64,000 nucleotides of DNA from Anaerolineae bacterium (GCA_044228875.1 JBGAUA010000003.1:8401-72400), one strand, 5' to 3'. Positions 10,853-64,000 are shown, counted from the stretch's first letter. Notes: generated by a model from the letters alone, not told the origin. Made by a program: numbers and translations.

Positions 10853-10880
10853 AGCGTACACGGACGTCAGGGTATCGCCC

Positions 10881-12260: not shown

Positions 12261-12263
12261 GCC

Positions 12264-15504: not shown

Positions 15505-18500
15505 ATGGCTGCCGATCCCCGCTGCTCGAATGATGGGTCCCCTCGACCGAGGACGCGTCGGCCGGGACAGGGTGCCTCTCGCCCGGCCCTGGTGATCGCG
15601 CTCGTCCTCGTCGCGGGCGGTCCGCCGCTGGCGCTGCGCGCGGAATCGCCCGAACACCGCGTCTTTCTACCCCTCCTGTCGCCATCACCGCGAAGGGCCG
15701 ACCCGCCGGACTTCAGCCGGACGCGCGGCTTTCAGGAACGCCCCTTCACCTTGAGTCTGCGGGCTGCCGACGGCCTCGTCATCCGTTACAGCCTCGACGG
15801 ACACGCGCCGGTGCCGGACCGCGGTCAGATCTACACGGCCCCCATCCCCATCGCCCACAGCGTCGTGGTGCGCGCCCTGGCCTACCGGCCGGAGGGCGGC
15901 TTCGCTCCGTCGGCGGTGGAGACCCATAGCTTCGTCTTCGGTGAGTCTGTGTTCCGCCAACCGGCCGCTCCACCGAGGCTGCCCAGTGAATGGGGCGTCG
16001 GCGTGGAGATGCCGGAGTTGGGCCCCGTAGCCGCCGATTACGGCATGGACCCGCGGGTGATCGACGATCCGCGCTACGCGCCCCGCCTGCAGAAGGCGCT
16101 GCGCGATCTTCCAGCGCTGTCCCTGGCCCTGGACCCGGATGACCTGTTCGGTGCGGAGCGCGGCATCTACCGCCACGCCACCGGCGAAGGCCCCGACTGG
16201 GAGCGGCCGGCTTCGGTGGAGCTGATCCGGTCGGACGGCGTCGCCGGCTTCCAGGTGGATGCCGGATTGCGCATGGCGGGCGTGGCCAGCCGGCATCACC
16301 AGTTCACGCGCAAGCACAGCTTCAGCCTGCGTTTCCGCTCCCGCTACGGCAGCCCCCGCTTGGACTATCCGCTCTTTCCCGAGTCGTCCGTGACCCGCTT
16401 CGACACCCTGCGCCTGCGCGCAGGCTTCAACGACAGCTTCGCCTTCGTTCCCTGGCGCGGGCAGTACCTGCGCGATGCCTGGGGGCGGAGCAGCCAGCGC
16501 GACATGGGCTGGCTGGCCCCACGGGGCCGCTTCGCGCACCTCTTCCTGAACGGCCTGTACTGGGGTCTCTACGAGATGGCCGAGGAGCCAACGGCGGCCT
16601 TCGCCGCCGATCACCTGGGGGGGCGCGAAGCGGACTACGACGTGGTCAAGTCGGCCGAGCGCGGCGAGGAGGGCGTGGAGGACGGCAACCGCATCGCCTA
16701 CGAGCGCCTGATCGCGATGACGGATCTGGCAGATCCGGTCCATTACCGGCAGGTGGCCGATCTTCTGGACATCGACGCCTTCGCCGACTACATGCTGCTC
16801 AACATCTACGCCCTGAACCTGGACTGGCAGACCAACTGGCGCGCGGCCCGCGATCGGGTCACCGGCTTCGGCTTCCGCTTCTTCAGCTGGGACACGGAGA
16901 TCAGTCTGGACCTCCTGCAGCCGGGCCATCGGCTGTACGAGCCGGCCTACGAGGATGACGTCTCCGTCACGATGGGGGTCGACGGCCTGCACGATCGGCT
17001 GATGCGCAGCCCGGAGTACCGACTGGCCTTCGCCGATCGTGCGCGCCGCCAGCTCTTCGCCGGCGGTGCCTTGACCGACGGGGCGGCGGCCGAGCGCTAT
17101 CGCCGCCTGGCGGCTCAGATCGAGGACCCGATGATCTTGGAGTCCGCCCGCTGGGGGGACAGCCCCCCCGGCGGGCTGGCGCGGCGGGACGGCGGCGCGC
17201 TGTGGGATGCCTATTTCGCCGCCAAGGGTCCTGGCGCGCCACAGACCCAGGGCCAGGAATGGGCCGCGGAGCGCGACCGTTTGCTGAACGACTTCTTCCC
17301 CCGGCGGGCGAACCGGGTGCTGTGGCAGCTCTGCGACCGGGTGCTCTACCCCCCCCTGGTGGCGCCGGTCTTCGAGCCGGGTGGGGGGCCGCTGGTCGCG
17401 GCCACCCGCGTGCTCATGGCACCGGACGCGGGCGGCTGCCCGGGCGCCGACCGGCGCGGCACCATCTATTACACGACGGACGGAAGCGACCCGCGCCTGC
17501 CCGGCAGCGGCCATCCGGACATCCCCTGGTCGGGGCAGATCGCCCATACGGCACAGGCCTACAGCCATCCCGTCGCGCTCGACGGCTACACCGTCCTGAA
17601 GGCCCGGGCCGCGTTGACCCACCAGGGCAACCTGATCTGGAGCGCCTTGAGCCACGCGAGCTACGGCAGCCCGCGCCTGGCCTTCGACGAGCTGCATTAC
17701 CAGCCGCCCGGTGAGGGCCAAGACCTCGAGTTCGTCGAGATCGTCAACCTGGAACGGCAGCCGGTGGACCTGAGCGGCGCGTCCACGGGCGGCATCACCT
17801 ACACCTTCCCGGCCGGCGCCCTGCGGGCACCAGCCGCGCGGGCCGTCCTGATCCGCGATCCGGACGCCTTCACCCTGCGACATCCCACGGTGCCCGTCGC
17901 CGGGGTCTATTCCGGGCGGCTGGCCGATGATGGTGAGCGCCTGACCCTGACCTCCTCCGGCGGCCAGTTGCTGGCCGAGGCCGTGTACCGCTCCGACGGC
18001 TTCTGGCCGCAGGCTCCGGCGGGGCAGGGCTACAGCCTGGTGCGGGCCGGCGGCACCGGTTCCGGCGCCGCGGCGCCGGAAGGGCCCGATACCTGGCGTG
18101 CCAGCACCGCCCCCGGCGGCTCACCCGGCCGCGGCGACCCACCGCCACCCTACGTTCCGGTGTGGATCAACGAGGTGTTGCCGCGTCCCCAGCCGCCCCT
18201 GGAAGGCGCCGTGGAGCTGTTCAACCCCGGTCCGGCGCCGGCGGACGTCTCCGGCTGGTGGCTGAGCGACGACCGCTCTCGCCTGCGCGGACACCGGCTG
18301 CCGTCGGGAACGGTGCTGCCTCCTGGCGGCTACCACGTGGTCTACCAGGCCCATTGGGAGCGGGATCCCGCGCCGTTGCGGCTCTCGCCGGCCGGCGGCG
18401 AGATCCTGCTGAGCGCCGCCGACGCCCTCGGCCAGCCGACGGGTTTTCTGACCGGCTTCCGCTACGGCGCCGCCCAGCCCAACCGCTCCTTCGGCCGCCT

Positions 18501-19194
18501 GTCAACGGCCGGTGGACCGGTCGTGGCCCCCTTGGCCGAGCCGAGCCTGGGCAGCCTCGCGCCCGAGAGCCCGGAGCGGTTCCGGCAGGGTCGCGGTGAC
18601 CCCAACGGGCCGCCCCTGCAAGGCCCGCTGATGATCACCGAGCTGATGTACCATCCCGGGCCGCGGTCCGGTCCGGAGCCGGAATGGATCGAGATCCAGA
18701 ACATCGGCGATCGACGGCTGGCCCTGGACGGTGCGGCGTCTCTGCCGGGCGCCGCGTCGCTGCCCTGGCGCCTGGTCGATGCCGTCAGCTTCAGCTTTCC
18801 CCCCGGTGCGGTTCTGGAAGCGGGCCAGCGCGCTCTGGTCACCGGCGGTGATCCGGCCGCCCTGCGCGCCCTGCGCCGCCTGCCGGATGATCTGCCGATA
18901 TGGGGTCCCTGGCGAGGCAGACTGGCCAACGAAGGCGAGTCCCTGGCCCTGGGGCAGCCCAGCGACGCCGACGACGGAACTGCCCTCATCGTGACCGATC
19001 GCATCGGCTACGGCAACGCCGCCCCCTGGCCGGCGACGGCGGACGGCCGAGGACCCAGTTTGGAGCGAGTGGACCGGGACCGTTGGGGCGAAGACCCTGC
19101 CGCTTGGGCGGCACCCAGCCGAGACGGCACGCCAGGCCGGCCGAACGCCGTGCCCCGTCGCATCTGGCTGCCCTTGGGCATACGCGGGCGCTAG
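15505..19194 (+). CDS. secreted CotH kinase-family protein with CHB_HEX_C-like domains and three lamin-tail (LTD) domains
   Basis: Signal anchor PALVIALVLVAGGPPLAL. CotH core HSFSLRFRSRYG...RLRAGFNDSF...HLFLNGLYWGLYEMAEEP...DYMLLNIYALNLDWQTNW...FFSWDTE. LTD-like repeats FDELHYQPPG..EFVEIVN, VWINEVLP...VELFNPG, LMITELMYHPG...EWIEIQN. Start ATG 15505 was chosen after the upstream stop at 15392. Confidence 0.85.
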   Translation: MAADPRCSNDGSPRPRTRRPGQGASRPALVIALVLVAGGPPLALRAESPEHRVFLPLLSPSPRRADPPDFSRTRGFQERPFTLSLRAADGLVIRYSLDGHAPVPDRGQIYTAPIPIAHSVVVRALAYRPEGGFAPSAVETHSFVFGESVFRQPAAPPRLPSEWGVGVEMPELGPVAADYGMDPRVIDDPRYAPRLQKALRDLPALSLALDPDDLFGAERGIYRHATGEGPDWERPASVELIRSDGVAGFQVDAGLRMAGVASRHHQFTRKHSFSLRFRSRYGSPRLDYPLFPESSVTRFDTLRLRAGFNDSFAFVPWRGQYLRDAWGRSSQRDMGWLAPRGRFAHLFLNGLYWGLYEMAEEPTAAFAADHLGGREADYDVVKSAERGEEGVEDGNRIAYERLIAMTDLADPVHYRQVADLLDIDAFADYMLLNIYALNLDWQTNWRAARDRVTGFGFRFFSWDTEISLDLLQPGHRLYEPAYEDDVSVTMGVDGLHDRLMRSPEYRLAFADRARRQLFAGGALTDGAAAERYRRLAAQIEDPMILESARWGDSPPGGLARRDGGALWDAYFAAKGPGAPQTQGQEWAAERDRLLNDFFPRRANRVLWQLCDRVLYPPLVAPVFEPGGGPLVAATRVLMAPDAGGCPGADRRGTIYYTTDGSDPRLPGSGHPDIPWSGQIAHTAQAYSHPVALDGYTVLKARAALTHQGNLIWSALSHASYGSPRLAFDELHYQPPGEGQDLEFVEIVNLERQPVDLSGASTGGITYTFPAGALRAPAARAVLIRDPDAFTLRHPTVPVAGVYSGRLADDGERLTLTSSGGQLLAEAVYRSDGFWPQAPAGQGYSLVRAGGTGSGAAAPEGPDTWRASTAPGGSPGRGDPPPPYVPVWINEVLPRPQPPLEGAVELFNPGPAPADVSGWWLSDDRSRLRGHRLPSGTVLPPGGYHVVYQAHWERDPAPLRLSPAGGEILLSAADALGQPTGFLTGFRYGAAQPNRSFGRLSTAGGPVVAPLAEPSLGSLAPESPERFRQGRGDPNGPPLQGPLMITELMYHPGPRSGPEPEWIEIQNIGDRRLALDGAASLPGAASLPWRLVDAVSFSFPPGAVLEAGQRALVTGGDPAALRALRRLPDDLPIWGPWRGRLANEGESLALGQPSDADDGTALIVTDRIGYGNAAPWPATADGRGPSLERVDRDRWGEDPAAWAAPSRDGTPGRPNAVPRRIWLPLGIRGR

Positions 19195-19300
19195 CAGCGG
19201 TCTGGTGCCGGCGGGATTGCAGCGGCTCACGTCTCCCCTCCGGCTCGCGCCTGACGTCCGGAGGATGGGAGCGGGCGGGCATGGCGCCGGCGCGATGCCG

Positions 19301-19343
19301 GAAAACGACGAACCGGCGAGAAGCAGGGCTTCTCGCCGGTTCG
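19301..19343 (-). terminator. intrinsic terminator candidate downstream of the S8 protease gene (may act bidirectionally)
   Basis: Perfect 16-bp stem CGAACCGGCGAGAAGC/GCTTCTCGCCGGTTCG (19309-19324 / 19328-19343) with a 3-nt loop. On the minus strand it is followed by TCGTTTTC. It lies between the convergent CotH and S8 genes. Confidence 0.6.
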
Positions 19344-19409
19344 GTGCGGTCAGGTTCTGATCCGCAGACCGGGCGCTCTGGCCGCCGGGTCTGATCGGAT
19401 CGGGTTCGC

Positions 19410-22400
19410 TCACGGGGTCGGCGTGGGCTCCTGATACGGCGCGGTCAGGTCGTGGTTGGGCATCACCAAGGGCAGGTAGAGGGTGGGATTGGGCTCCCGA
19501 CCCAGCATGATGTCCCTGAGGCCCCATTCCATGCCCGGCATGTTGTAGACGTAGTGGGAGAGGATGCCCAGCGCCATCGGTTCGGCATCCGCGGCCACGG
19601 GCTCGCAGATCCAGGACAGCTCCGCGTCGGCGTTGCCCGTGCTCGCCGGCAGCTCGACCATCGCGTCGATGTCCATCCAGTTGGTCTCGCCCGTCATGAG
19701 CTTGACGCAGTCCAGCTGGGCCTGATCGAAGTGGTAGCGACCACCCTCCTTCACGTCGCTGGGGGCCCAGTCGCCGACCGCCGTGGTGTCACCCTCGGCC
19801 GTGAAGTCGCCCATGTCGTCGACCGTCTGCACCGCGAAGTCGAAGCTGAGCGTGCCGTCGAAGGTCACGTCGGCGCCGAAGAGCTCCAAGGGCAGAGCCA
19901 GGCTGGCGAAGAGGTCCTGGACGTTGTAGTTCACCGACTGGAAGGCGGCGTCACTGAAGACGAGCCACTGCGCCTGATCGGCGATGGGGGTGGGGTAGCC
20001 GTCGGCACCCGTGGCCGCCGGGGCGAAGACATTGAGCGCGTTGACGCCCTGGCCCAGACGGAAGACCACGAAGTCGAAGGTGCCGTCCTTGTCCGCGTCG
20101 AGGAACACCGACACACGGCTGTCGATGACCAGGTTGCTGCTCTGGAAGGTGGCCACGCCGAACTGCAGTACCGGTGAGGCGCTGCCGTCGGCGAAGACGC
20201 GGTCACCGTAGCGCACGCCGACCGCGGCCACGTCGAGGGTGGCGGGGATCATCTCCGCGGGATCGGCGCTCGCGCTTTCCTCGTCGTCCTGGCCCAGGGC
20301 CCAGTAGGTCTCGGCCAGGCCGGTGTTGTTGCATTCATTGGCCCAGCTCATGGGCAGCGCCTGATCCTGCTCCTGACCCAGGTAGACGGCGTCCATGGAA
20401 TCCGGAACCGTGCAGCTGCTGCGCATCGGCAGGGTCTGGAAGGGCACGCCCACCACGTCGCCCTTGTCCACCGGCATGCCCGCGGCATCCACCTCGGTGA
20501 TGTGCAGGTAGCCGTCCACCTCCTGGTCCTGGAAGCGGTCCTCAGGCATGATCGGCGCGGCGCCATAGACGTCGAATTCCTTCATCTCCGCCGGATCCGC
20601 CGTCAAGGTGACCGCCACCTCGGCCGACTTGCCGCCCTCGATTGTGAGCGAGGCCGGCTCCATGCTCAGGGTGACGCCGCTGTCGGCGTCCTGCTCGGGG
20701 AAGGCCAAGGCGTAGTCCAGCGTGTAGGAGGCCGCCTTGTCCGACAGGTTGCGGACCGTCAGATTAATGGTCTTGGAGCTGGGCTCGCCCGCGGCATGCG
20801 TCACGCCGAAGCTGAGCTCCGCCAGACCGCGCTCGGAGCGCACCAGGGTATGCGCCACCGCGCTCTTGTAGGCCTGGGTCAAGCCGGCGCCCTGGCGCGT
20901 CACGCCCTCCAGCGGGCCGGTGTCGTTGCGCGAGCGGTGGATGACCGGGTCGGCGTAGTTCATGGCCAGGGCGGCGATGTCATCGGCGCTGAGGCCCAGG
21001 TTCTGGGTCTTGTTACGTTCCCACAGGAGGGCCGTCACGCCGGCCACCGCCGGGCCGGACATGGAGGTGCCGCTGAAGCTGACCCCCTCCGTGCCGGTGC
21101 CGCTGGCCACGGAGAAGATGTTGTGCCCCGGCGCGGTGATCTGCGGCTTGATATGGGCGTAGAAGCGCCCCGGGCCGCGGCTGCTGGAATCGTCCATGGT
21201 GTCGGTGAGCCAGATCTGCTCGATCTTCGACGCCGGGTCCAGGGTGGCCCTGACCACGGTGCCGCCGACCAGAAGGTCCTTCAGGGCCACGCCCGGCGCG
21301 TTGTCGATCATGACCCCGGGGATCTCGACTTTGGTGTCGCAGGGCGAGGGGGCAAGGCAACCCATGGCCGTCTTGGGGCGGGCGTCGCTGAAGACCACGG
21401 CGGCCGTCGCGCCCATCTTGGCGGCGTTGACCAGCTTGTCGTAGAAGGGGCAGGTGCCGCGCTCGATGAGGGCGATCTTCTCGGTGACGTCCTGCACCGG
21501 GGCCGTGGGGTTGCCCATGTCGTCATTGCAGGCCAGACCGTACCAGGCCAGCTCGCCGGTGCGCACGCCGGTGGAGGCCAGGGAGGCTATCCACTCCGCG
21601 CCCTCAAGGGCCTCGTGAAGTTCTTCCATGGCCGTGCCGTCATCGGTCCAGTTCACCTTGAGCGCCAGGGCCGACTCGCCCGGCGCCACCGAGTTGGCGA
21701 CCGAGAGAACCTTCTCCGTGGCGGAGGGCGACCCGACGATGAAGGGCGTGGGGCCGGAGTTGCCGGCCGAGGCCACCACCGTCACCTCGTGCTCGATCAG
21801 GCTCTCGACCACCTCTTCGTAGTCCCTGGTGCCGCCGCCGAAGCCGGCGCCCAGGCTCATGTTGATCACGTCGATCCTGGTGGCGGGCCGGGTGCCCGGC
21901 ACCTTGTCCGAAACCTGGCCCAGGTACAGGTTGTGGTTGGCCACCCATTCCATGGCCCCGGCCGTGATGTTGGTCGAGCCGCTGGCGCCGAAGACCTTCA
22001 GGGAGACCAGGGTGGCGTCAGGCGCCATGCCCTTGTCCACCTTGCCGCCGCCCGGGCTGGCCGAGATGCCCGCCACGTGCGAGCCGTGGCCGCCGTCATC
22101 GATCGGGTCCTCGTCCGGCTTGGGGGTGGAATTCGCCGCGTTGTTGGCGTCGTAGAGGAAGCCCACAAAGTCCCAGCCGCCGACCACCTTGGCCGTCGGG
22201 AAGGTGCCCGCCTCGATCACCGTGTCGTCGTCGGCGTCGCGCTTGGCCTTGTCGCCGTGGCCGCCGAGGGCCGCATGCATGTAGTCGATGCCGGTGTCGA
22301 TGACCGCGATGGTCGTGCCCTTGCCGGTGAAGCCAAGCTCCTCGGCCACCCTGGTGGCGCCGATATGCGGACGCGCATCCCCAAGATCCACCTGGAAGGT

Positions 22401-22901
22401 GGGCATGCGGCCCATCGAGCGGATGCCCGGGATGGCGGCCAGATCGGCCAGCCGGTCGCGGCGGATCCGCACGTGCAGGGCGTTGGACGTCGTCTGCAGG
22501 CGCTCGATCAACTGCCCGCCGGCGGACTGGATGGCCCGGATGACCGGCTCCTGCCCGCTCGCCAGCGTGTTATGGATGCTGCTGATGGCATCCAGGCTCA
22601 TCGGGGCGCTGGCGTCCTGGATGGCCGCCGTGTTTGTCGCCACCTGGTCCAGGACCTGGTAGAGCGAGGGGGCGTCCAGGCGCAGGAGCAGGTCGAGCGT
22701 CGCGTCGGGCGCCAGACCCTGCAGCGCCGGGGCGCTCACGTCGCCGTCGGTCTGGTCGAGCGGGGCGCCTTCAAAGGTGACCGCGCCCAGCGGCATGGCG
22801 ACGGAGGACTGCTGAGCCTCCGCCGACCCACTACCCAGGCCGGACACCAGGATGGATGCCGCCATCAGGGCGGCGGCCAACGGCCGGTGCTGCAACTTCA
22901 T
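19410..22901 (-). CDS. secreted subtilisin-like serine protease (peptidase S8) with PA-domain insertion and long C-terminal extension
   Basis: Signal peptide MKLQHRPLAAALMAASILVSGLGSGSAEA. Catalytic motifs IAVIDTGIDYMH (D), GHGSHVAGI (H), SGTSMSGPAVAG (S). PA-like IALIERGTCPFYDKLVNAAKMGATAAVVF. ATG 22901 follows CAGGAGGG. Confidence 0.9.
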   Translation of the reverse strand: MKLQHRPLAAALMAASILVSGLGSGSAEAQQSSVAMPLGAVTFEGAPLDQTDGDVSAPALQGLAPDATLDLLLRLDAPSLYQVLDQVATNTAAIQDASAPMSLDAISSIHNTLASGQEPVIRAIQSAGGQLIERLQTTSNALHVRIRRDRLADLAAIPGIRSMGRMPTFQVDLGDARPHIGATRVAEELGFTGKGTTIAVIDTGIDYMHAALGGHGDKAKRDADDDTVIEAGTFPTAKVVGGWDFVGFLYDANNAANSTPKPDEDPIDDGGHGSHVAGISASPGGGKVDKGMAPDATLVSLKVFGASGSTNITAGAMEWVANHNLYLGQVSDKVPGTRPATRIDVINMSLGAGFGGGTRDYEEVVESLIEHEVTVVASAGNSGPTPFIVGSPSATEKVLSVANSVAPGESALALKVNWTDDGTAMEELHEALEGAEWIASLASTGVRTGELAWYGLACNDDMGNPTAPVQDVTEKIALIERGTCPFYDKLVNAAKMGATAAVVFSDARPKTAMGCLAPSPCDTKVEIPGVMIDNAPGVALKDLLVGGTVVRATLDPASKIEQIWLTDTMDDSSSRGPGRFYAHIKPQITAPGHNIFSVASGTGTEGVSFSGTSMSGPAVAGVTALLWERNKTQNLGLSADDIAALAMNYADPVIHRSRNDTGPLEGVTRQGAGLTQAYKSAVAHTLVRSERGLAELSFGVTHAAGEPSSKTINLTVRNLSDKAASYTLDYALAFPEQDADSGVTLSMEPASLTIEGGKSAEVAVTLTADPAEMKEFDVYGAAPIMPEDRFQDQEVDGYLHITEVDAAGMPVDKGDVVGVPFQTLPMRSSCTVPDSMDAVYLGQEQDQALPMSWANECNNTGLAETYWALGQDDEESASADPAEMIPATLDVAAVGVRYGDRVFADGSASPVLQFGVATFQSSNLVIDSRVSVFLDADKDGTFDFVVFRLGQGVNALNVFAPAATGADGYPTPIADQAQWLVFSDAAFQSVNYNVQDLFASLALPLELFGADVTFDGTLSFDFAVQTVDDMGDFTAEGDTTAVGDWAPSDVKEGGRYHFDQAQLDCVKLMTGETNWMDIDAMVELPASTGNADAELSWICEPVAADAEPMALGILSHYVYNMPGMEWGLRDIMLGREPNPTLYLPLVMPNHDLTAPYQEPTPTP

Positions 22902-23312
22902 GTTCGGGGTCCCTCCTGAGGATCGTGGTGCGGACACCGTCGTCTGCCGGTGATGATGGCGGCGGCATGCGGTGACCTGCGGGCCGAATATATCGCGCCA
23001 CCCGTGGGCGGCGCCTTATGGTTCGGGGTTGAACGTGCCCTGTAACGCCGCCAGACCGGCAAGCGTGACCAAGCGCCAGGCCGTCGGCGCGCGCGAGGCG
23101 AGCGAAACGCGGGCAAGCCTATCACGGAAGCCGCTGCGGAGCAAGGGATTTCCCGACCGACAGGTTTCGACAGGCCCCGGGCCGACGGCCCTGGCCCGCC
23201 ATCCGCTATCGGTTGCCATGTCGCAACCATCGGTCTCCGTGTTAGCATGAAGCGCCAGCCCGCCGATCGATCCCGTACCGCATCCCTATCGTTCCGCCCC
23301 GTGGAGGTTGCC

Positions 23313-25343
23313 ATGACCGCTCCCCGACGCGCGCTCCAGTTCCTCGGCTCGGTCCTCTTCCTGTCCCTGATCGCGTTCGTCAGCGGACCGATCCGGCAGC
23401 CGGCCGCGGGCGCTCCGGATGCTTCGATCGGATCGCTGGAGATCGACGACTACAGTCTGGGCGAGATCCTCGAAGGGTCGGGACCGGCCATCGAGCGCTT
23501 CCCACCCGGCGCCCTGCCCGCCGCGCCTCGGATCCGCGCGCAGGAGCCTCTGCCGGCACCGGCCGCGGGCTCGCCGGTGGACTTCCGCCATTACCCCAGT
23601 CCGGAAGAGATCCGTGCCTTCCTGCAGGATCTCGCCACGGCGCATCCGGACCTGGTGACAGTCCAGACCATCGGACAGAGCTGGCAGGGTCGCCCCATCG
23701 ACGCCGTCCGCCTGACCAACGCTCGCGCGCCGCAACCCATCGCCGACCGGCCGGCGATCCTGATCGACGCCCAGCACCATGCCCGCGAGCTGATCAGCGC
23801 CCAGGTCGCCTTGTACAACATCTGGCGCCTGGTGGACGGCTACGGCAAGGATCCGGTGGCCACGCGCATCCTCGACACCCGTGTGGTCCACGTGATCCCC
23901 AGCGTCAACGTCGACGGCAACGCCCTGGTGCTCTCCGACAACCAGAACAACCGCAAGACCCTGAGCCCCGCCTGCTGCGACGACGACGGCGACGGCACGG
24001 TGGACGAGGATCCACCCCTGGGCTACGGCTACGGCACCGACACGCTCAGCCGCTACACCTTCGACCAGGCCTGGGCCGACGCCCATCCCGAGAACCCCTT
24101 CGTCGACGACTGGCGTAGCCATGTCATCGGCCAGGCCCAGCCGCTGGGTCGCTTCACCGGGGCCCTGGGCGGCGAGCGGCGCCCCATCGCGCGCGTTGAC
24201 GCCGACGGCGACGGCCGGATTCAGGAAGATCCGCTGGGCGGCGTGGACCCCAACCGCAACTACGACTGGTTCTGGGAAGGCGGCGACGCGCGCATTGGGT
24301 CGGACGCCTTCCGCGGTCCAGCCGCCTGGTCGGAGCCCGAGGTGCGCACCCTGCGCGACTACGTGGCGGAACTCGACACCATCGCGGCCTCGGTCTCCTA
24401 CCATTCCGGAACCGACCTGCTGCTGCATCCCTGGGCCTATTCGGAGTCGGATCCCTTGCCGGACGAGGGAATCTACGAGCTCCTGGGCGCCAAGGGCAGC
24501 CAGCTGACCGCGGTGCACGGCTTCGATGGCACCGTCCGCACGTGGACGGCGCGCGGCCTCTACGGGGCCATGGGCAGCTCCATGGATTTCATCTACGCCA
24601 GGATGGGTGCCCTGGCCTTCGCTCCGGAGACCTTCGGGGACAGCGGCATCACCCGCGTCGAACGCCTGGGCGCCACCGCCACCTTCACCGTCGGTCAGGC
24701 GACAGGCTTCTCCTTCAATCCTCGCCCGGATCGGATCCTGCCCGTGGCCGATCGCTGGGACCGCTGGGCCCGTTACCTGATGGCCGCCAGCCCCAACATC
24801 GCCCTCAACGCCTTGCGTCGGGACGGCGACGGTCTGCTCGTCGCCATCGGCAGCGAAGGCGTGATGCCCATTAGGCTCCGTGTCACTCTGACCACCGCGG
24901 ACGGTCGCCGCCTGGAGCTGGCGCCGGAGGGCGACCGCGTGGTCCATGCCGAGCAGCTGCGCTGGCGGGTGCCTTTGACCGCCCTGGGCGCCGAGGGCAA
25001 CCGCTTGGAGGCCGAGGCCATCCTGGCTTCGGGCACGCGCCCGCATCGGGTCGAGCTGGCCCACTGGTCCTTCGACCTGGGTCCGGCAGGCCCCCGCTTG
25101 ACCGCAGGCGACATCGAGCCCTTCACCGACCTGTCGGCGCATTTCGGCGGCTGGTGGGCCGGCCCCGAATGGAACGATCCACGCTACCGCTGTTCGAAGG
25201 ATCCCTGCCAGCCGCAGATCCTGGTCACGCCGCCGACGATCCCCACCGTCCCGGCCGAGCCGACGGAAGCGCCGGCCTTGACGCCGACGGCATCGCCGTC
25301 CGGCGCCCCGGAGCTGGTCCTGCCGCTGCTTGGCGCGCCCTGA
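23313..25343 (+). CDS. secreted M14-family zinc carboxypeptidase
   Basis: Signal anchor MTAPRRALQFLGSVLFLSLIAFVSG. YPSPEEIRAFLQDLATAHPDLVTVQTIGQSWQGRPI...ILIDAQHHARELIS (HxxE zinc motif)...VSYHSGTDLLLHPW. GGAGG lies 6 nt before ATG 23313. Confidence 0.85.
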   Translation: MTAPRRALQFLGSVLFLSLIAFVSGPIRQPAAGAPDASIGSLEIDDYSLGEILEGSGPAIERFPPGALPAAPRIRAQEPLPAPAAGSPVDFRHYPSPEEIRAFLQDLATAHPDLVTVQTIGQSWQGRPIDAVRLTNARAPQPIADRPAILIDAQHHARELISAQVALYNIWRLVDGYGKDPVATRILDTRVVHVIPSVNVDGNALVLSDNQNNRKTLSPACCDDDGDGTVDEDPPLGYGYGTDTLSRYTFDQAWADAHPENPFVDDWRSHVIGQAQPLGRFTGALGGERRPIARVDADGDGRIQEDPLGGVDPNRNYDWFWEGGDARIGSDAFRGPAAWSEPEVRTLRDYVAELDTIAASVSYHSGTDLLLHPWAYSESDPLPDEGIYELLGAKGSQLTAVHGFDGTVRTWTARGLYGAMGSSMDFIYARMGALAFAPETFGDSGITRVERLGATATFTVGQATGFSFNPRPDRILPVADRWDRWARYLMAASPNIALNALRRDGDGLLVAIGSEGVMPIRLRVTLTTADGRRLELAPEGDRVVHAEQLRWRVPLTALGAEGNRLEAEAILASGTRPHRVELAHWSFDLGPAGPRLTAGDIEPFTDLSAHFGGWWAGPEWNDPRYRCSKDPCQPQILVTPPTIPTVPAEPTEAPALTPTASPSGAPELVLPLLGAP

Positions 25344-29175: not shown

Positions 29176-30432
29176 ATGTCCCTTTCCCAATCCACCGCTC
29201 CCCTGCTCAACCTGCCTCCACCGCCGCGGCGCTCCAGTTGGATCCTGCGCCTCTTGTTTGCGTTCCTGTCGCTGGGCATCCTGGCTTCCGGTACCGCGGC
29301 GGCCTTGGTGATCGGTCGGACGCTCTGGGCCCTCGCCGTCCCGGCTCGACCGGCGGCCGTGGCGGTGTCGCCTCCCGACCCGTCCCAAGTGCCCCAGGGC
29401 GAGTCCCTCGCGGTCGAGGCCCCCGAAGCCGCCGTCTGGGACCAGCACGGCCCCCTGGACATCCTGCTTCTGGGTCTGGACATCGATGACTGCGAGCAGG
29501 GCAGCGAGCTGGCCACCGCCAGCGAGGCCCGCCGCACGGACACGATGATCCTGGTGCACATCGATCCAGCCTCCGATCGTGCCGCCATGTTCTCCTTGCC
29601 GCGCGATCTCTACGTCTACCTGGACATTCCCTACGGCGGCGGGGTCGTCGGCGGCAACAAGCTGAACACGGCCCATGTCTTCGGCACCAGACTGGACGAG
29701 GACGGCAAGGCCGTCCCGCACAGCGGTCCCAACGCGGTGAAGCGGGCCATCCAGCAGAATCTCGACCTGTCGGTCCACCGTTACATCCGGGTGGACTTCC
29801 AGGGCTTCAAAGATGTCGTGGACGCCTTGGGCGGCGTCGACATCGACATCCCGCCCTCGGCCGACGATCCGACGGTGGGCCTGGTCGACACCGGCTATCC
29901 GGACGGCCATTGCGGCACGATGACCCTGCGCTTCCTGCCCGGCCTCCAGCACCTGGACGGCACGAAGGCCCTGCAATACGCGCGCTCACGCAAATCGACC
30001 AGTGACTTCGATCGCTCCCGGCGGCAGATGGAGGTCCTCCTGGCCCTGCGCGCGCAGGCGCTCAGGCCTGGCGTCATCCTGGACCTGCACAAGCTCATCC
30101 CGGCCACCATGGACGCCGTGGACACCGACCTCACCACGGAGGAGATCCTGGCCCTGGCGCGCATCGCCCGGCGCATCGATCCTTCCGCCGTGGGCCGCCT
30201 GCAGTTGGACACCAACGCCGGCTACGGCGACATGCTGCCCATCGGCAGCTTCGAGCAGTGGGTGCTCAGGCTCGACTCGGAGCGCTACGCCCCGCTCCGG
30301 GAGGCCTTCCTGAACTTCGGGCCGGATCCCTACGCCTCGCCTCCGGCCGTCACGCCGGCGGCGGACGGATCGGCGCCCGACACCGCGTCGTCGTCGCCGG
30401 ACGCCGCGCCGGGCGGCGACGCCTTGCCCTGA
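29176..30432 (+). CDS. LytR-CpsA-Psr (LCP) family cell-envelope polymer transferase
   Basis: N-terminal TM, then RTDTMILVHIDPASDRAAMFSLPRDLYV...NKLNTAHVFG...YIRVDFQGFKDVVDALGGVDIDIP...ALQYARSRKSTSDFDRSRRQ. Confidence 0.9.
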   Translation: MSLSQSTAPLLNLPPPPRRSSWILRLLFAFLSLGILASGTAAALVIGRTLWALAVPARPAAVAVSPPDPSQVPQGESLAVEAPEAAVWDQHGPLDILLLGLDIDDCEQGSELATASEARRTDTMILVHIDPASDRAAMFSLPRDLYVYLDIPYGGGVVGGNKLNTAHVFGTRLDEDGKAVPHSGPNAVKRAIQQNLDLSVHRYIRVDFQGFKDVVDALGGVDIDIPPSADDPTVGLVDTGYPDGHCGTMTLRFLPGLQHLDGTKALQYARSRKSTSDFDRSRRQMEVLLALRAQALRPGVILDLHKLIPATMDAVDTDLTTEEILALARIARRIDPSAVGRLQLDTNAGYGDMLPIGSFEQWVLRLDSERYAPLREAFLNFGPDPYASPPAVTPAADGSAPDTASSSPDAAPGGDALP

Positions 30433-38680: not shown

Positions 38681-38687
38681 GGTCGCT

Positions 38688-56895: not shown

Positions 56896-59800
56896 ATGAC
56901 ATTCCAGAGTGCCGCGCTGGCGTTCACCGTCTGGTTGCGGCGGTCCGGTTGGCGACCAGGTCTGCTCGCGGGGATGGTCTTGACCGGTCTGGTCGGCGGC
57001 TGGATGCAGCGATCGCCGTCCACCGCTCTGCCTCGCGTTCGTTCGGCAACCGCGCAGGAGCCGTCTCCGCCGGGTTTCCTGGGTCTGCCCATCTTGAACT
57101 ACCTGGGTGAAGACGATGTCTGCCGTAGCCTGGTGGGCCTGCAGAACCTCGGTGACGAGGCGGCTCAAGCTGTCGTCCTGTTCTGGGACGATCAACGTGC
57201 GGGCGATCCTTGCGCCGGCCCCTTCAAGGTGGAATGCAGCGGGCTCCTCGCTCCCGGCGCCATCTGGTCCTTGCGCGGAGCCCAGATTCCTCCGGGCAGT
57301 CGCAGCGCCATGGCCTTCAGCGTGACCGCCAGGCGGCTGAGCGAGCTCGGCCTGGACATGGGATTCGACAGTACGGCGGCGCATTACCTTTGCGCCACCT
57401 TGTCCAGCGATCTGATGCTGGGCGACTGCGCCGCCTACGCGCGCTTCCGCGCGGCATGGGCCTCCGGCGGCAGCTTCGCCGGGCTGCCATTGGGTCTCGC
57501 AGCAGGGCCGCCACTTTCCGCCCAAGTGTTGCGCCACTGTCCCTCGGCAAATTCGCCGGGCCTGGAGGTCAGCTCCCTCTACGCCGCTTCCTGGCAGAGC
57601 GCCGCGGCGAAAGGACCCCACGTCTATCTGGCCGGCCGGATTCGCGTCCCCGACCCCTTTCTGTCCGCCTTCGTCCATCTGCAGAACCTGGGATCGCGGG
57701 AGGCTCAGGCCACCGTCGCCTTCCATGCGGCTGGAGATTGCCTGCCGGCTCGAGCCTGCGGCCGATTGACCGTACAGCCGGGCGCATCGGCGATGTTGTC
57801 CTTGGCGGACTGCGCCCCGACCGACGGCGGGCTCAGCATCCAGAGCGATGAGCCCCTGGCCGTGACCGTCGACCTGGAAGGAGCGGACAGCCTGTCCACA
57901 GTGGAGGGCACCGACGCCGTCAACTGGGGCACGCGGCTGGTCGGCGCCATGGACCCCGATGCGGCCCGCGGTTGGTCCACCACCACCTATGTGCAGAGCC
58001 CGCCAGGCGCCGAGCGCGAGACCAGGGTGCGCGTCGAGCATCTGTCGCCGGACGGTGCGGTGCTGCACAGCGCCGAACAAACGCTCTGCCCCGGAGGCAT
58101 GCTGACCTTTCCTCGGCCGGCCGCGGACTCGCGACCCGGACGTCGGACCGGGACCTTGCGCGTCAGCAGCCTCGACGGGATTTCGGTGGCGGCCGGTGCC
58201 CTGATGGAGCGCTCCGGCCGCTTCGGGCGGTCGGTCGAGGCGGCGCTCGTCAACCTGGTGCCGGATCCGGCGCCGGGGCGCGGGACTGTCCATTCCCTGC
58301 CCATCGTGGCCAAGGATCTGGATGGCCTGGGACTGACGACGGAGATTGCCCTGGCCAACCACAGCATCTCGCCCGGCTGGGTGGATCTGGCCCTGATGAC
58401 CTACGACGCGAGCGGCCCGCTGGACATCCGCTGCCGCCGTCTGGCCGCCGGACAGGTGGGCTACATCGATGTTGAGCAGATGGTTCAGATCCCGATTGGT
58501 TTCCTTGGCGGCATGGTGGTCTCCCCGGTATGGTGGTCGCACGCGACTCCGGACGGTGAATCGACGAGCCCCTCGCTGAGCGTCAGCTCGATCCTGCGCA
58601 CGGGAACCCGTGACGGTGAAGACATCCCGGGCGACGAACTGGCGGTCAGCCAGGGCATTCGGCTGAACAGCATCCCGGACTTCCTGCGCGCGGCTCCCGC
58701 GCAGCGTTGCCGGCCACTGCTGGCGGCGATCCAGCCACAGCCCACCGCGACGGCCGATCCGCTGGTCAAGGACGAAGCCCTTCAAGCCATGGCCTGGCTG
58801 CCCGCCTTGGCCTACCTGGGTCAGGATCCCGTTTGCCTCGCCACGGTGACGGTGACCAACGAAGGCGACAGGCCGGCGCAGCTGCTGTGGCTGGCTTGGA
58901 CGGAGCCTGGCTTCTGCCCCCCGAAGGCCGCAGGTCCTATGGCCTTCGGCTGCTCCGGTCTCCTGGCCCCGGGCGGAACCTGGGTGCTCGGCGAAGGCAC
59001 CTTGCCCGATACGGCGAACGGAGGTCTGATCTACAGTTTGAGCACAGCCACGCTGCTCGAACTGGAACTGGATCCTGTTTCACGGGAACCCATCGCCTCG
59101 GTCCTCTGCCAGCGTATGTCAGGGATCTCGGTTCCGGCCGATCAAATGGAAGGTCGCCTGCGGATGGCCTTCCAGACAGGAGGTCGCTTCGCCGACCTGC
59201 CCCTGGGCAAAGCCTGGGGGCCGCCGATCACGGCCTCGGTCAGCCGAACCTGCCCGGCAGACCAGACGCCGGGCTTCGAGGTGACCGACAGCTATGCGGC
59301 ACTGCGGCCGGACAAGGGGCGAGCGACGCGCATGGAACATCGCTACGCGGCCCAGCCCATCCTGGCCGACTGGGCCCAGCTCAACAGCACCCTCTACCTC
59401 CAGAACACCGGCCTTAGCTGCGCCGCGGTCAACCTGGCATTCCAGGTCCTGGGCGACTGCGTGTACACCCGCAACTGCCAGATCGGATCCCTGGCCCCCG
59501 GCGAGACCTTTGCTTTCGACGCCACGGATTGCGTCGGGCCGGATTGGCGGGGCAGCGCGGTCATCACGGCCAACGAACCGCTGGCCATCGTCCTGGACCA
59601 GATCGGGCGCGACCGCCTGCGAAGCAGTCGCGCGGGATCCAGCGCCCTGGCCTACGACATGGACGGCAACGGACAGCTGGAGTCAGCCGATGTGGATCGG
59701 GTCCTCGCCGCCCTGGGCCGCCGGCGGGGCGACGGCGGTTGGGACGCGCGCCTGGACCTCAACAGCGACGACGAGGTGAACGATCTCGATGTGGCCACCG

Positions 59801-61719
59801 CCCGGACCGGCCTCTGCCGACCTGCTCAGCCGGCGGGTGTCCCCGTCCCCAGGCCCGACGATCCGTTGCCCCGCCTGCAGACCTTCCTGCCGGCCCTGAC
59901 CGGCGATGGGTCCGGGCGCGCCGACTGCAACGCCTACGTGGACATCCAGAACCTGGGCCAGGTTCCAGCCAAGGCCATCCTCCTCCTGTGGAGCGCGGTG
60001 ACCGCCGATTCGGGCGATTGCCAGAGTCCCAGCCGCGTAGAATGCTCGCCGCTGCTGGCGCCGGGGACCCGTTGGCTGTTGCCGCGGCCGACGCTGGCGG
60101 GAGTCGGAAGCGCGGTGGCCTTCGGGGTGGACGGTATCGCGGATCCGACGGCAGTTCTTGGTATCGAAGCGGACGATACCGTGGCCGATATCCTCTGCGA
60201 GACCCTTCGCTTTGCTGTGGTCGGCGAATGCGCGGACTACCGCCGTTTCAAGTCCGCCTGGGACAGCAAGGGGTCCTTTTCCGGGATCCCCTTCGACAAG
60301 CTCAACGGTGTTCCGTTGGGCATCCGCGTCGAGCGGGATTGCGCCTCGTCCGGACCGCGGGTTCCGGCAGGCCGGCGCGAGCGCAGCGCCTACACCGGGC
60401 TGGATGCCGCGCAGCTCTCCGGCTGGGACGAAGCCGCCGGCGCCCATGTCAGTACCGTGCCGGTCCTCTACGCCAACAAGGCTGGCATCAACACCCGGCT
60501 CTGGCTGCAGAACGCCGGTGTCGCCGCCGCCCAGGTTGAGGTCTGGCTACAGGCCCAGAACGACTGCACCGGCAGCCGCCGCTGCACCTCCTTGTCCGTG
60601 CACCCTGGAGCGGTGGTCGCCGTCGATCCCTACGTCGACTGCCGACACATCGACTGGCAGGGCTCTGCCTGGCTGCGGTCGACAGCGCCTATCGCCGTGG
60701 TGGCGGAGACCGACGGGCGCGGCGTTCGGATGGCCGCCGCGGCACCGATGCGACAGCCGCCCCTGGGCGCCGATCCTGCAGCGCTCACCACGAACACCGT
60801 GCTCTTCGGCCCGCTCATCCAGGCGGACCAGCAGGGCTGGGACGTGGGGGTCAACGTCCAGAACCTGAGCCTGAGCCAGGAAGCCTGGGTGGATGTGGCC
60901 TTCCTGGACGGGCAGGGCGCACCGGTGTCCACCTTCGACGCCCGTATCTGCGCCGGCGACACCGAGACCTTCTTCCTGCCCGTGTCCGATGTGTCGCGGC
61001 AGCGGTTGGGGTCCTTGGGCACCGTCCGCGTGCTGAGCCGGCCGCCGGAAGGCCAGGCCGGCCTCGTCTCGACGCCCATCGCTGGAATTCTGATGATGAT
61101 GAACTATGCCGATCCCTCTCGCGCCACCTTGCTGGAGGCGGTCTCCTATCCACTGCTGACCTCAGACGCGGTGGGTCCATGGCCGCTTGGCCAAGGGCGG
61201 CCAGGCACGGCAGTGCTGGCCTTGCCGGGACTGGTTCATCAACCCGGACCGGAGGGCGAGACCGGCGAGCTGGTGATCAGCAATCTGGCCGGACTGCCGG
61301 GTGAGACGGTGGTGGACGTCACGCTGTTCGACGACAAGGGTGTGGTGGCCAAGACCGTGAGGCGATTGGCGGCCGGCGCGGTGGAGGCCATTCCGCTGGC
61401 GGAACTGGGCGTTCCCGCAGGCTTCCGAGGCGCGGCGCTGGTCTCGGCCGCCAGCTGGACCCATCGTCGGCCGGACCGGCCCGCGGACCCGGCGGTGATT
61501 GCCCTGGCGGCCGCGGCGCTGACCAAGGTGGGTGCTGACGACTCGCCACGCTTGAGCCCGGGGCCGCGCATGGCCGCTGAGCCGGGCATCCCGCTGGTGC
61601 GGCTGCCAGGTGTGGGGACGTCGGAGCCACGTCCACCGGCTCCGACCGCGGAACCGCGCACGCCTGAACCGCTAGGAACCGGAAAGGCCTGGCTGCCGCG
61701 GCTCGGAAAGGGGCGCTGA
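56896..61719 (+). CDS. giant (about 1,607 aa) secreted/anchored Cys-rich repeat protein: three paralogous super-modules, a dockerin-like Ca-binding pair, C-terminal Pro/Thr linker
   Basis: N-terminal hydrophobic anchor AALAFTVWL...GLLAGMVLTGLVGG. Three collinear modules (nt ~57076-57885, 58786-59595, 59872-60711) share LP.L..LG....C...V..QN.G....A...W......C......ECS.LLAPG..W ... LC..L.....C..Y.RF..AW...G.F...P. Repeated V.(V/L)QN.G / V.V.N.G beta-sandwich (CARDB-like) signatures. No enzyme motif recognised. Confidence 0.8.
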   Translation: MTFQSAALAFTVWLRRSGWRPGLLAGMVLTGLVGGWMQRSPSTALPRVRSATAQEPSPPGFLGLPILNYLGEDDVCRSLVGLQNLGDEAAQAVVLFWDDQRAGDPCAGPFKVECSGLLAPGAIWSLRGAQIPPGSRSAMAFSVTARRLSELGLDMGFDSTAAHYLCATLSSDLMLGDCAAYARFRAAWASGGSFAGLPLGLAAGPPLSAQVLRHCPSANSPGLEVSSLYAASWQSAAAKGPHVYLAGRIRVPDPFLSAFVHLQNLGSREAQATVAFHAAGDCLPARACGRLTVQPGASAMLSLADCAPTDGGLSIQSDEPLAVTVDLEGADSLSTVEGTDAVNWGTRLVGAMDPDAARGWSTTTYVQSPPGAERETRVRVEHLSPDGAVLHSAEQTLCPGGMLTFPRPAADSRPGRRTGTLRVSSLDGISVAAGALMERSGRFGRSVEAALVNLVPDPAPGRGTVHSLPIVAKDLDGLGLTTEIALANHSISPGWVDLALMTYDASGPLDIRCRRLAAGQVGYIDVEQMVQIPIGFLGGMVVSPVWWSHATPDGESTSPSLSVSSILRTGTRDGEDIPGDELAVSQGIRLNSIPDFLRAAPAQRCRPLLAAIQPQPTATADPLVKDEALQAMAWLPALAYLGQDPVCLATVTVTNEGDRPAQLLWLAWTEPGFCPPKAAGPMAFGCSGLLAPGGTWVLGEGTLPDTANGGLIYSLSTATLLELELDPVSREPIASVLCQRMSGISVPADQMEGRLRMAFQTGGRFADLPLGKAWGPPITASVSRTCPADQTPGFEVTDSYAALRPDKGRATRMEHRYAAQPILADWAQLNSTLYLQNTGLSCAAVNLAFQVLGDCVYTRNCQIGSLAPGETFAFDATDCVGPDWRGSAVITANEPLAIVLDQIGRDRLRSSRAGSSALAYDMDGNGQLESADVDRVLAALGRRRGDGGWDARLDLNSDDEVNDLDVATARTGLCRPAQPAGVPVPRPDDPLPRLQTFLPALTGDGSGRADCNAYVDIQNLGQVPAKAILLLWSAVTADSGDCQSPSRVECSPLLAPGTRWLLPRPTLAGVGSAVAFGVDGIADPTAVLGIEADDTVADILCETLRFAVVGECADYRRFKSAWDSKGSFSGIPFDKLNGVPLGIRVERDCASSGPRVPAGRRERSAYTGLDAAQLSGWDEAAGAHVSTVPVLYANKAGINTRLWLQNAGVAAAQVEVWLQAQNDCTGSRRCTSLSVHPGAVVAVDPYVDCRHIDWQGSAWLRSTAPIAVVAETDGRGVRMAAAAPMRQPPLGADPAALTTNTVLFGPLIQADQQGWDVGVNVQNLSLSQEAWVDVAFLDGQGAPVSTFDARICAGDTETFFLPVSDVSRQRLGSLGTVRVLSRPPEGQAGLVSTPIAGILMMMNYADPSRATLLEAVSYPLLTSDAVGPWPLGQGRPGTAVLALPGLVHQPGPEGETGELVISNLAGLPGETVVDVTLFDDKGVVAKTVRRLAAGAVEAIPLAELGVPAGFRGAALVSAASWTHRRPDRPADPAVIALAAAALTKVGADDSPRLSPGPRMAAEPGIPLVRLPGVGTSEPRPPAPTAEPRTPEPLGTGKAWLPRLGKGR

Positions 61720-62439: not shown

Positions 62440-64000
62440 TTAGCGTCGCTCGGTTCGCGGGATCCACAGCCGGCCGACCTGGGACGTGGCGCTGGCTGCG
62501 ACGGAGACCGTCGCGGCAGCCGTTGGACTGGGCGTGGCACTGGGCGCGGGGGTTGCTGTCGGCGGTGCGGGATCGACGGACAGCCAGATGGCGCGCGGAT
62601 TGCCCCAGCGGCCGGCAGCGGATCGGCCACGAACGATGAGGTAGTAGCGACCGGGCGCGAGCGTCGTCGTGTCCAGTTCCACCGAGGCCTCCTCGATCAG
62701 GCTGTCGAAGGCGCCGTCATCGGCCGTCAATGCGAGCCCGCTTCCGGGCTCGGCATCTGAGCGCGGCAGCGCGATCCCGGCCGGCGGCCCGCCCGGCCCG
62801 CCGACAGTGACCTCTGCGCCGTCCACCTTCATCCCGCCGACCCCCGTACCGTCCAGTCGTGCGGTGACCCACAGCGGATCGCCCTGCTGCAACTCGACCG
62901 TATCCAGGCGCACCTGCGACACTTCGGGGGCATAGACCCGCGCGTAGGGCTGGTCGGAAAGGGTGAGCATGCGCTGCAATTGAGGGAGCTGGCTGCGAAT
63001 GATGCCGGGAACCTGGCTGCAAGGGGTCAGGAAGGTGTCGCCCTCCAGTTCGATGACGTAGCCGGGGATGCCCAACTCGCCGTATGCCCAGTCTCGGGCG
63101 TCGCCGCTGACGGGGTACAGGCTGTTCTTGGTGACGTAGCCGATGGGTGCGGCATACTGGGCGGCGATGGTCGACAGGCCGTCGTGGTTCGGTGCCCGGG
63201 CATCGGTCCAGCTCCAGGGATAGAGCATGGTGCCGGGCGACGTGTAGTTGTGGAAGTTGATCATGGCCCCCACGGTATCCTCGGGGGCCTTGTCGTCGTC
63301 CGCCGGCCCGCGCTGGTCGGGGAAGATCCGGCGCAGCATCGTCTCGTAGGCCTGGGTTTCGGGCTCAGATCCGGCGGAGCGGCCGCGATAGGTCTGCTCG
63401 CAGGCATCAGTGCTATGACCGGGTGCGTTCCACTTGAAGATGTGGTTGCGGTTGAGATCGACACCATAATGGCTGCCGGTGGTAGGAGGCCATTCGCAGG
63501 CCTCCCGCTCCCGGTGGGCGTTCTTGCGCCATTCCCAAGGACGGCCGTCAGCCGACGTGGCGCCCAACTCCACCAGCTCCCGCCCGTCAGGGTTCATGGC
63601 CAGACCCACATAGAGCTCGCGATGGTCCAGGAGGTAGGTGATCTGGGGATCGCGGCCATAGCCCTCCACCATGGTCTGGATGAAGGCGCGCATGAGTTCG
63701 ATGGTGGGCAGCTCTCGCGCGTGCAATCCGCCGTCGGCCCAGAAGCGCCCCACTTTGGCGCTGGTCGCCTCCCGCGCGGTCACTTTGGCCACCAGGATAT
63801 CGTGCCCCGTCAGCGCATCGCCCTTGGGGCTGCGGCAGGGGCCTTCGGCCTTGCAGTAGCTGTCGCCGGCGTCGATGACCTCCACCAGGTGGGAATGCTG
63901 CGCGGCGTAGTCCTTCAGCCAGTCCAGGGCTTCGGCCACCTCCAGGTAGCAGCTGGGCCAGGCCTGGGGCGCGGCGGGCATCTGGCCAAGGACGGTCAAC
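62440..64000 (-). CDS. secreted M14-family zinc carboxypeptidase with C-terminal beta-domain and Pro/Thr linker (5' end beyond window)
   Basis: ADGGLHARELPTIELMRAFI (HxxE), LAMNPDGRE, GVDLNRNH, YRGRSAGSEPET, INFHNYTSPGTMLYPW. The ORF is still open at the window edge and no signal peptide is seen, so it is N-terminally incomplete. Confidence 0.85.
   Translation of the reverse strand, partial: LTVLGQMPAAPQAWPSCYLEVAEALDWLKDYAAQHSHLVEVIDAGDSYCKAEGPCRSPKGDALTGHDILVAKVTAREATSAKVGRFWADGGLHARELPTIELMRAFIQTMVEGYGRDPQITYLLDHRELYVGLAMNPDGRELVELGATSADGRPWEWRKNAHREREACEWPPTTGSHYGVDLNRNHIFKWNAPGHSTDACEQTYRGRSAGSEPETQAYETMLRRIFPDQRGPADDDKAPEDTVGAMINFHNYTSPGTMLYPWSWTDARAPNHDGLSTIAAQYAAPIGYVTKNSLYPVSGDARDWAYGELGIPGYVIELEGDTFLTPCSQVPGIIRSQLPQLQRMLTLSDQPYARVYAPEVSQVRLDTVELQQGDPLWVTARLDGTGVGGMKVDGAEVTVGGPGGPPAGIALPRSDAEPGSGLALTADDGAFDSLIEEASVELDTTTLAPGRYYLIVRGRSAAGRWGNPRAIWLSVDPAPPTATPAPSATPSPTAAATVSVAASATSQVGRLWIPRTERR

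Follow-up and report, generated by a model that had tools for sequence, protein, structure and literature searches.

Putative YLP-box tails on five predicted exoproteins of an Anaerolineae bacterium

Five tails and the curated YLP-box

The 64,000-nucleotide stretch of Anaerolineae bacterium DNA analysed here (GCA_044228875.1, JBGAUA010000003.1:8401-72400; hereafter the window, with positions counted from its first letter) has a G+C content of 70% and encodes five proteins that close with a short motif centred on Leu-Pro. Judged from their sequences, all five are diverged versions of a motif known from the Chloroflexota as the YLP-box: the tail of an S8 protease is the one detectable member, while the other four are degenerate. 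A reading made from the DNA alone (the sequence-only reading) had treated the motif as an unrecognised signal. NCBIfam release 20 already curates the YLP-box in two models, NF050076.1 ('sort_motif_YLP', 11 positions, cutoff 15 bits) and NF053834.1 ('ultrashort_CTERM', 10 positions, cutoff 10 bits), and the claim of novelty therefore fails. Both models are named 'YLP-box putative sorting motif-containing protein' and match canonical tails. To the known YLP-box the window adds one detectable member, four degenerate members and a rare N-terminal copy. As the phenomenon is already curated, the remaining interest lies in its mechanism and not in the sighting.

The YLP-box has the consensus [RKEH]-[ILV]-[YFW]-[LF]-P-[LVIAW]-[VLAI]-x-[KR], spans 8-10 residues and is followed by 0-6 residues and the stop codon. 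Surface proteins and hydrolases exported by the Sec route carry it at their very C-terminal end, and occasionally behind the signal peptide or between domains. In the window, a CotH protein with lamin-tail domains (LTD; gene 15121/15505-19194, plus strand) ends in the variant RRIWLPLGIRGR (19156..19191, stop to 19194) and carries a further box, HRVFLPLLSP (15655..15684, plus strand), 5-6 residues past the predicted signal-peptide cleavage site between ...LALRA and ESPE. The S8 subtilase with a PA domain (gene 19410-22937, minus strand) has the box TLYLPLVMP (19458..19484) in the tail TLYLPLVMPNHDLTAPYQEPTPTP, followed by an extension of 15 amino acids (aa) rich in P, E and T (NHDLTAPYQEPTPTP, 19413..19457). 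The box is non-terminal throughout this S8 clade, in which a poorly conserved P/E/T-rich extension of 16-40 aa is typical (homologues P0147-P0156 and P0178-P0180). The first of two M14 carboxypeptidases (M14-1; gene 23247/23313-25343, plus strand) closes with the variant LVLPLLGAP (25314..25340, stop to 25343; tail ELVLPLLGAP), and the P/T/A-rich linker ahead of it (25227..25313) has an AlphaFold predicted local distance difference test score (pLDDT) below 50 at residues 672-687. A giant three-module protein (1622 aa; gene 56851/56896-61719, plus strand), which had no Pfam or NCBIfam match, ends in the variant AWLPRLGKGR (61687..61716, stop to 61719; tail GKAWLPRLGKGR) behind a P-rich linker (61621-61686). 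The second M14 protein (M14-2; minus strand, from 62440 to beyond 63999, with its N-terminus outside the window) ends in the degenerate box LWIPRTERR (62443..62469; tail GRLWIPRTERR), preceded by a P/T/A linker (62470-62574). The box peptide RKIYLPLVLKGW is named here beside the window variants of CotH and the giant protein.

All five C-termini translate exactly as the sequence-only reading had given them, its domain calls (CotH with LTD, S8 with PA, M14 twice) hold, and no transmembrane (TM) helix follows any of the tails, as it had said. The copies that it had seen near the CotH N-terminus and at the module starts of the giant protein are present and conserved. Its P/T/A-rich linker, attributed to four of the five tails, is clear in M14-1, M14-2 and the giant protein; in CotH it is weak, and the S8 box has none ahead of it. 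The distance from the Pro to the C-terminus is 4-6 residues in four tails and 19 in S8, where the extension is hydrophilic. Signal peptides or anchors are predicted for CotH, S8, M14-1 (helix 26-45) and the giant protein.

As a 20-residue fragment, the S8 tail scored 12.6 bits with NF053834, above the cutoff of 10, and 13.5 bits with NF050076, below the cutoff of 15. The window tails resemble the curated box in their core (aliphatic, aromatic, L, P, aliphatic, aliphatic, x, K/R), in their place at the extreme C-terminus, in the lack of a TM helix and in their Chloroflexota cargo. They differ from it in the S8 extension, in the additional N-terminal copy of CotH and in the degeneracy of the CotH, M14-1, giant and M14-2 tails, in which W or V replaces Y, R or G follows the Pro and the ends are Gly/Arg-rich. 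The closest genome is a metagenome-assembled genome of Candidatus Epilinea brevis (91% identity at the M14 gene), a filamentous member of the Chloroflexota from activated sludge, and Logan run SRR14092364 contains an S8 protein identical to that of the window.

Position and conservation of the box

The loose pattern of the sequence-only reading is frequent (any protein has about 3 matches per 1000 residues), and three independent tests were therefore used, namely a scan of the window, a comparison of loci and the orthologues. For the scan, a position-specific scoring matrix (PSSM) of 9 columns was built from M14-1 homologues (at most 61% identity) and 17 unrelated metagenomic tails, with no window sequence in it, and all 1343 Pro sites in the 41 predicted window proteins were scored. 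The five highest-ranking sites were the S8 tail (15.8 bits), the CotH tail (13.1), the CotH N-terminal box (12.6), the giant-protein tail (11.0) and the M14-1 tail (10.7), in this order; the M14-2 tail was weak when taken alone (6.2 bits, rank 17 of 1343). The locus comparison set 24 Chloroflexota sequences around M14 homologues against 40 non-Chloroflexi ones, many of them equally G+C-rich. A strict form of the motif was present in the last 25 aa of 16 genes in the Chloroflexota loci (3.0 expected), compared to 3 genes in the control loci (3.4 expected). PSSM matches were 100-200 times denser in the last 30 aa of proteins than internally. Leu-Pro was nearly fixed at the box (L at -1 in 94 of 118, an aromatic residue at -2 in 88 of 118), with an aliphatic residue before the aromatic one and K or R three residues past the Pro.

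In other Chloroflexota loci, tails such as KIYLPLVLKGW closed the neighbouring genes. A metagenome collection was therefore scanned, regardless of position, for DNA encoding IYLPLVLK, which yielded at least 120 stretches; the counts that follow are among the matches listed. Distinct contexts ended 0-8 codons before a stop in 73 of 106 cases (69%, about 2% being expected under a uniform distribution), and in 12 contexts the box ended exactly at the Lys. The 121 matches contained 91 distinct 24-mers, and conservation is therefore at the protein level; an origin of the tail as a DNA repeat was ruled out on the same count. A Sec-type signal peptide was present in 24-25 of the 29 complete carriers. 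The correlation with signal peptides, a check proposed by the sequence-only reading, was found: 42 of 59 carriers were signal-peptide-like vs. 110 of 319 neighbour genes (odds ratio 4.7, p = 2e-7, with one crude detector). The 46 longer carriers matched at least 59 Pfam families typical of surface or secreted proteins (among them DUF11, PKD, InhA-MAM, cohesin, dockerin, beta-helix/NosD, FG-GAP, S8, M4, M23 and M28), and no Pfam family covered the tail in these 46. At least 15 further neighbours, not chosen by pattern, ended in close variants such as VYLPLVMKDW, IFLPLVMRSS and VYLPLVLRH.

Not all canonical boxes were terminal. About 10% of the occurrences listed were internal, flanked by a surface-type domain and by an additional linker or domain, and a search for a second, terminal box in these proteins found none. 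One metagenomic box (locus L109) lies directly after a signal peptide, analogous to the N-terminal box of CotH. Only 6 of 62 canonical boxes listed followed a linker with at least 30% P+T; most canonical boxes stand directly behind a folded beta-rich domain with no linker at all. The P/T linker is therefore not part of the signal, and its proposed role as a general companion of the motif was not borne out. YLP-box genes often occur two or three in a row on metagenomic contigs (L105, L122, L153, L173, L182, L092 and L140), which the CotH-S8-M14 and giant-M14 groupings of the window mirror.

Orthologues retain the box in four of the five families. Nearly all of 120 M14-1 homologues ended in the motif, with or without a linker (for example IYLPLISR and FLPLVLRNAR), and the box proline P693 was invariant in 103 homologues of 37-91% identity, being among only 45 invariant columns. 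Half of the giant-protein homologues (12 of 24) had a tail box, with tails such as VWLPRLSKGR, IYLPFLVMRY, VYLPYAEQWRP and LYLPFGERPQR. The motif was found in 49 of 120 S8 homologues (boxes such as IFLPLVNK and IYLPLVMRAFTTP) and was absent from the named Bacillota members of this set. Among M14-2 representatives, 43 of 150 had the box; the tails of the nearest relatives read ...SIWLPLALR, ...RLYLPLALRQ and ...VVFIPRAAQRR, and because these closest relatives end in a box the window M14-2 tail was taken as a decayed copy. For CotH a single close relative was compared (Ca. Epilinea brevis, locus L001), in which both boxes were kept and the C-terminal tail was identical. Chloroflexota homologues of M14 and S8 (named Chloroflexi, Anaerolineae or Ardenticatenales) carried the box, whereas homologues from Bacillota, Acidobacteriota and other groups were without it. 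The homologues and the control loci thus both support the earlier proposal of a short linear motif specific to this lineage, the Chloroflexota, at the termini of Sec-exported proteins.

Many M14-1 homologues (P0012-P0034) have a second conserved motif, L-P-[LYF]-R-x-A-R-T-[QE], directly behind the N-terminal signal anchor (for example GALYLPLRNARTQ), of which the window M14-1 N-terminus (23313-23420) holds a degenerate copy, VSGPIRQPAAG.

The tail pattern in the window exceeds chance. The box is positionally restricted, is under protein-level selection and is confined to signal-peptide proteins of many unrelated families. Although the loose pattern is so common and look-alikes occur in histidine kinases and ABC ATPases, which would favour chance, the box sites are the top five Pro sites of the window by matrix and orthologues keep them; the high-G+C controls showed no enrichment of the kind that the composition bias of a 70% G+C genome would produce, and the synonymous codons are varied, contrary to a DNA-level repeat at gene ends. 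We regard chance, composition and DNA repetition together as having a negligible share in the pattern.

Look-alikes in cytoplasmic proteins comprised the C-terminus of HATPase_c histidine kinases (G-T-T-F-x-x-x-L-P-L), an internal IYLPLVLK in an ABC-type ATPase and an SAM methyltransferase (O-methyltransferase). They were met in loci L123 (5751-7118), L144, L138, L166, L178 and L111 and would be false positives in any regular-expression survey.

How the box may act

We think it more likely than not that the box is a tag for sorting to, or retention at, the surface, and that an unlinked envelope component reads it; of the roles put forward in the sequence-only reading, sorting or retention fits best. 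Both this role and a dedicated partner are inferred from the following observations. In the AlphaFold model of M14-1 (the sole tail model made, from a 103-sequence alignment), the body had a pLDDT above 90, while linker and tail were unstructured (about 45-55) and the tail was undocked. The box would thus act in trans, because the M14-1 tail is undocked in this model and because the same peptide closes unrelated folds. The sharp residue preferences argue for a specific binding site and not for generic hydrophobicity. A free carboxylate is not required, given the extensions of the S8 clade, the internal copies and the post-signal-peptide copy of CotH. In the mechanism that we propose, a tag acting in cis would be read in trans, after export, by an envelope component. 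This might be a processing or attaching enzyme, or else a receptor to which the box binds as a strand. Proteases, carboxypeptidases, CotH-type and adhesin-like proteins would then be kept at the surface of the filament and not be lost by diffusion.

Several observations weigh against a sorting or retention tag. The CotH, M14-1, giant and M14-2 tails and the CotH N-terminal box gave no match to the NCBIfam models at E <= 10. These models are insensitive (5 of the 46 canonical IYLPLVLK carriers were reported, and one canonical tail gave no match), and the degenerate W/V-L-P variants found in the Epilinea lineage escape the curated hidden Markov models (HMMs). The four tails were counted as members by orthology, because the tails of their orthologues grade into canonical boxes and because the models miss true positives. 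A sortase-like enzyme would need its substrate kept at the membrane, and no TM segment is present to do so. Extensions of 16-40 aa and internal positions (about 10%) are tolerated by the box, which is unusual for a terminal sorting signal. A Pfam search of the 79 genes within two genes of YLP genes revealed no recurrent family, sortase, exosortase or rhomboid, and the 40 other window genes, annotated with Pfam and NCBIfam, contained no sortase, rhomboid, exosortase or CPBP family. The earlier statement that no sortase- or exosortase-like gene lies in the window was confirmed by this annotation. No paper describing the motif was found in the full-text literature, in which the box strings matched only frog temporins, myeloperoxidase peptides and eukaryotic YLP-motif proteins; 'sorting' is therefore a curator's inference made without experiment. 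A review of activated-sludge Chloroflexi contained nothing on surface exoenzymes or the envelope.

A stronger form of the sorting proposal, which we put forward only tentatively and think somewhat doubtful, is a dedicated machinery unrelated to sortases and exosortases that reads an 8-residue, TM-less signal at either mature terminus (both in CotH) and attaches the protein covalently or specifically to the envelope. If true, it would add a new class to the pathways by which bacteria sort their surface proteins. Known systems are similar in part. Like the LPXTG signal of sortases, the box is a Pro-containing signature that surface proteins exported by Sec carry close to the C-terminus, with hydrophobic and then basic residues behind it, and is sometimes preceded by a P/T-rich, wall-spanning region; however, it has no T-G, its hydrophobic stretch is 2-3 residues compared to a TM helix of about 20, and no sortase for such a route was found in the window or among the 79 neighbours. 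PEP-CTERM, PGF-CTERM, GlyGly-CTERM and MYXO-CTERM are also lineage-specific C-terminal tags on many unrelated secreted proteins, with the same order of signature, hydrophobic and basic parts, but the signals for exosortase, archaeosortase and rhombosortase have a full TM helix and an identified intramembrane enzyme, and the YLP-box has neither. No NCBIfam sorting-domain model for PEP-CTERM, PGF-CTERM or GlyGly-CTERM matched the tails. The C-terminal domain of type IX secretion (TIGR04183, Por_Secre_tail) likewise tags signal-peptide proteins of many families; it is a folded beta-sandwich of 80-100 aa in Bacteroidota, in contrast to an 8-residue peptide, and gave only two weak incidental matches among the 46 carriers.

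The main rival is an anchor that needs no partner, in which the hydrophobic heptad with basic flanks enters the cytoplasmic membrane by itself, at the outer leaflet or the interface, or enters another hydrophobic envelope layer, and tethers the protein non-covalently. It is the least unlikely of the alternatives to a tag read in trans, although we still think it unlikely. The composition (a basic residue, seven hydrophobic ones including an aromatic, then K/R) would suit such an interfacial anchor and is reminiscent, by analogy only, of the N-terminus of temporins (FLPLIG[RK]...), which are membrane-active frog peptides; the 79 flanking genes revealed no dedicated enzyme, and the P/T linkers of three window proteins would serve as wall-spanning spacers. 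However, a spacer is absent from most canonical boxes, eight residues are very short for stable membrane binding, and a generic anchor would not keep the Pro invariant, and Leu-Pro nearly so, in homologues of 37-91% identity. The direct succession of beta-rich domain and box in most canonical carriers could instead mean that the tail packs against the protein to which it belongs, as a final strand or a plug, and is a stabilising or pro-peptide-like element. We find such an intramolecular role improbable, as the same octapeptide ends proteins of at least 59 unrelated families and the M14-1 box lies beyond a 30-aa disordered linker, undocked in the model. Equally hard to sustain is a signal for quality control or maturation, and not for localisation, that is recognised by a tail-specific or PDZ-type protease: the hydrophobic character and the extreme C-terminal place would fit, but anything from 0 to 40 residues may separate the box from the carboxylate, and boxes also occur at N-terminal and internal positions, which is incompatible with recognition of a free C-terminus. 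Post-signal-peptide boxes and tolerated extensions constrain the mechanism in this way whatever the reader may be. A ribosome-arrest peptide was also considered and ruled out, the carriers being large enzymes of many families and the box being N-terminal in some cases.

The giant protein bears on a further proposal of the sequence-only reading, that the tails insert as beta-strands into its modules and that it acts as a scaffold for the enzymes. It is built from three homologous modules (residues 79-609 match 1026-1586, and 650-925 correspond to an N-terminal half-module). The unit of about 285 aa was found in 56 copies in 25 proteins (HMM iterated over 24 homologues), and every copy starts x-[HYWF]-[LV]-P-x-L-N-[FY]-x-G-x-D-x-x-C. 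The corresponding box-like first strands of the window protein, all on the plus strand, are GFLGLPILNYLG in module 1 (57073..57108; part of the repeated domain and not a terminal tag), MAWLPALAYLG in module 2 (58789..58821; AlphaFold strand E8-11 before the invariant P12) and TFLPALTGDG in module 3 (59881..59910; 7.9 bits). The box-like start of all 56 modules, the AlphaFold model of module 2, in which this segment is the first beta-strand, and the position of the giant gene beside M14-2 would favour docking. However, the module folds confidently with its own strand (pLDDT 93.2) and shows no sign of a vacant groove; the giant family is rare (24 homologues), whereas the tag is widespread (at least 120 stretches and at least 59 Pfam families); distant giant homologues without a C-terminal box keep the module motif, which fits plain domain homology; and the giant protein itself has a tail box. 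The module-start motif is explained by domain repetition, as each copy of the repeated domain has it as an intrinsic first strand. In principle, a short beta-strand at a terminus, with hydrophobic residues in alternation, could be donated in trans, as in the chaperone-usher and type V pilus systems, but acceptors in those systems are without a strand, which the giant-protein modules have in the model, and no usher- or chaperone-like genes were seen. We therefore do not uphold donor-strand docking on the giant protein, which we consider very unlikely.

The giant-protein module family is unannotated and Cys-rich, without a Pfam or NCBIfam model. A Foldseek search with the module found no whole-fold match, only sub-domain similarity to TM1070/ASRT beta-sandwiches. 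The protein also contains a dockerin/EF-hand-like stretch at 59653-59802.

Activated sludge, sediments and hot springs harbour abundant filamentous Chloroflexota, which are thought to feed on polymers by surface-bound hydrolysis. A tag common to proteases, carboxypeptidases and adhesin-like proteins would give a handle on how enzymes are retained in this probably monoderm, sortase-poor lineage. The five window proteins can be annotated as YLP-box proteins, that is, as predicted surface-retained exoproteins.

Neighbouring genes in the window

The 40 other window genes encode housekeeping functions, an exopolysaccharide (EPS)/cell-wall locus and sigma-54 regulators. A cell-envelope glycopolymer locus (29176-30432 and 34117-49792) lies between the two groups of YLP-box genes. 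It comprises LytR-CpsA-Psr, a LysM protein, two Bac_transf priming transferases, GT4 and GT2 glycosyltransferases, a flippase, a FemAB/GNAT-like protein and YdjC. Directly upstream of the CotH/S8/M14 cluster (9195-13655) are a GAF-PAS histidine kinase, a sigma-54 enhancer-binding response regulator and rpoN. The 1261-aa kinase open reading frame overlaps the regulator, which is encoded by the other strand, and its long 5' part is therefore probably noncoding.

Between the convergent CotH and S8 genes, a G+C-rich hairpin with a 16-bp stem followed by a T-run (19309-19343) is probably a shared or bidirectional terminator. Two tandem DUF1246/DUF1297 genes (49825-52114), which we take to encode PurP-like ATP-grasp enzymes (archaeal-type FAICAR synthetase family), adjoin purD (52066-53409). 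Two proteins, of 501 aa (6344-7849) and 870 aa (41466-44078), had no Pfam or NCBIfam match, and the 870-aa protein contains weak internal box-like sites that are not terminal (QEVYLPFADYE, 8.2 bits).

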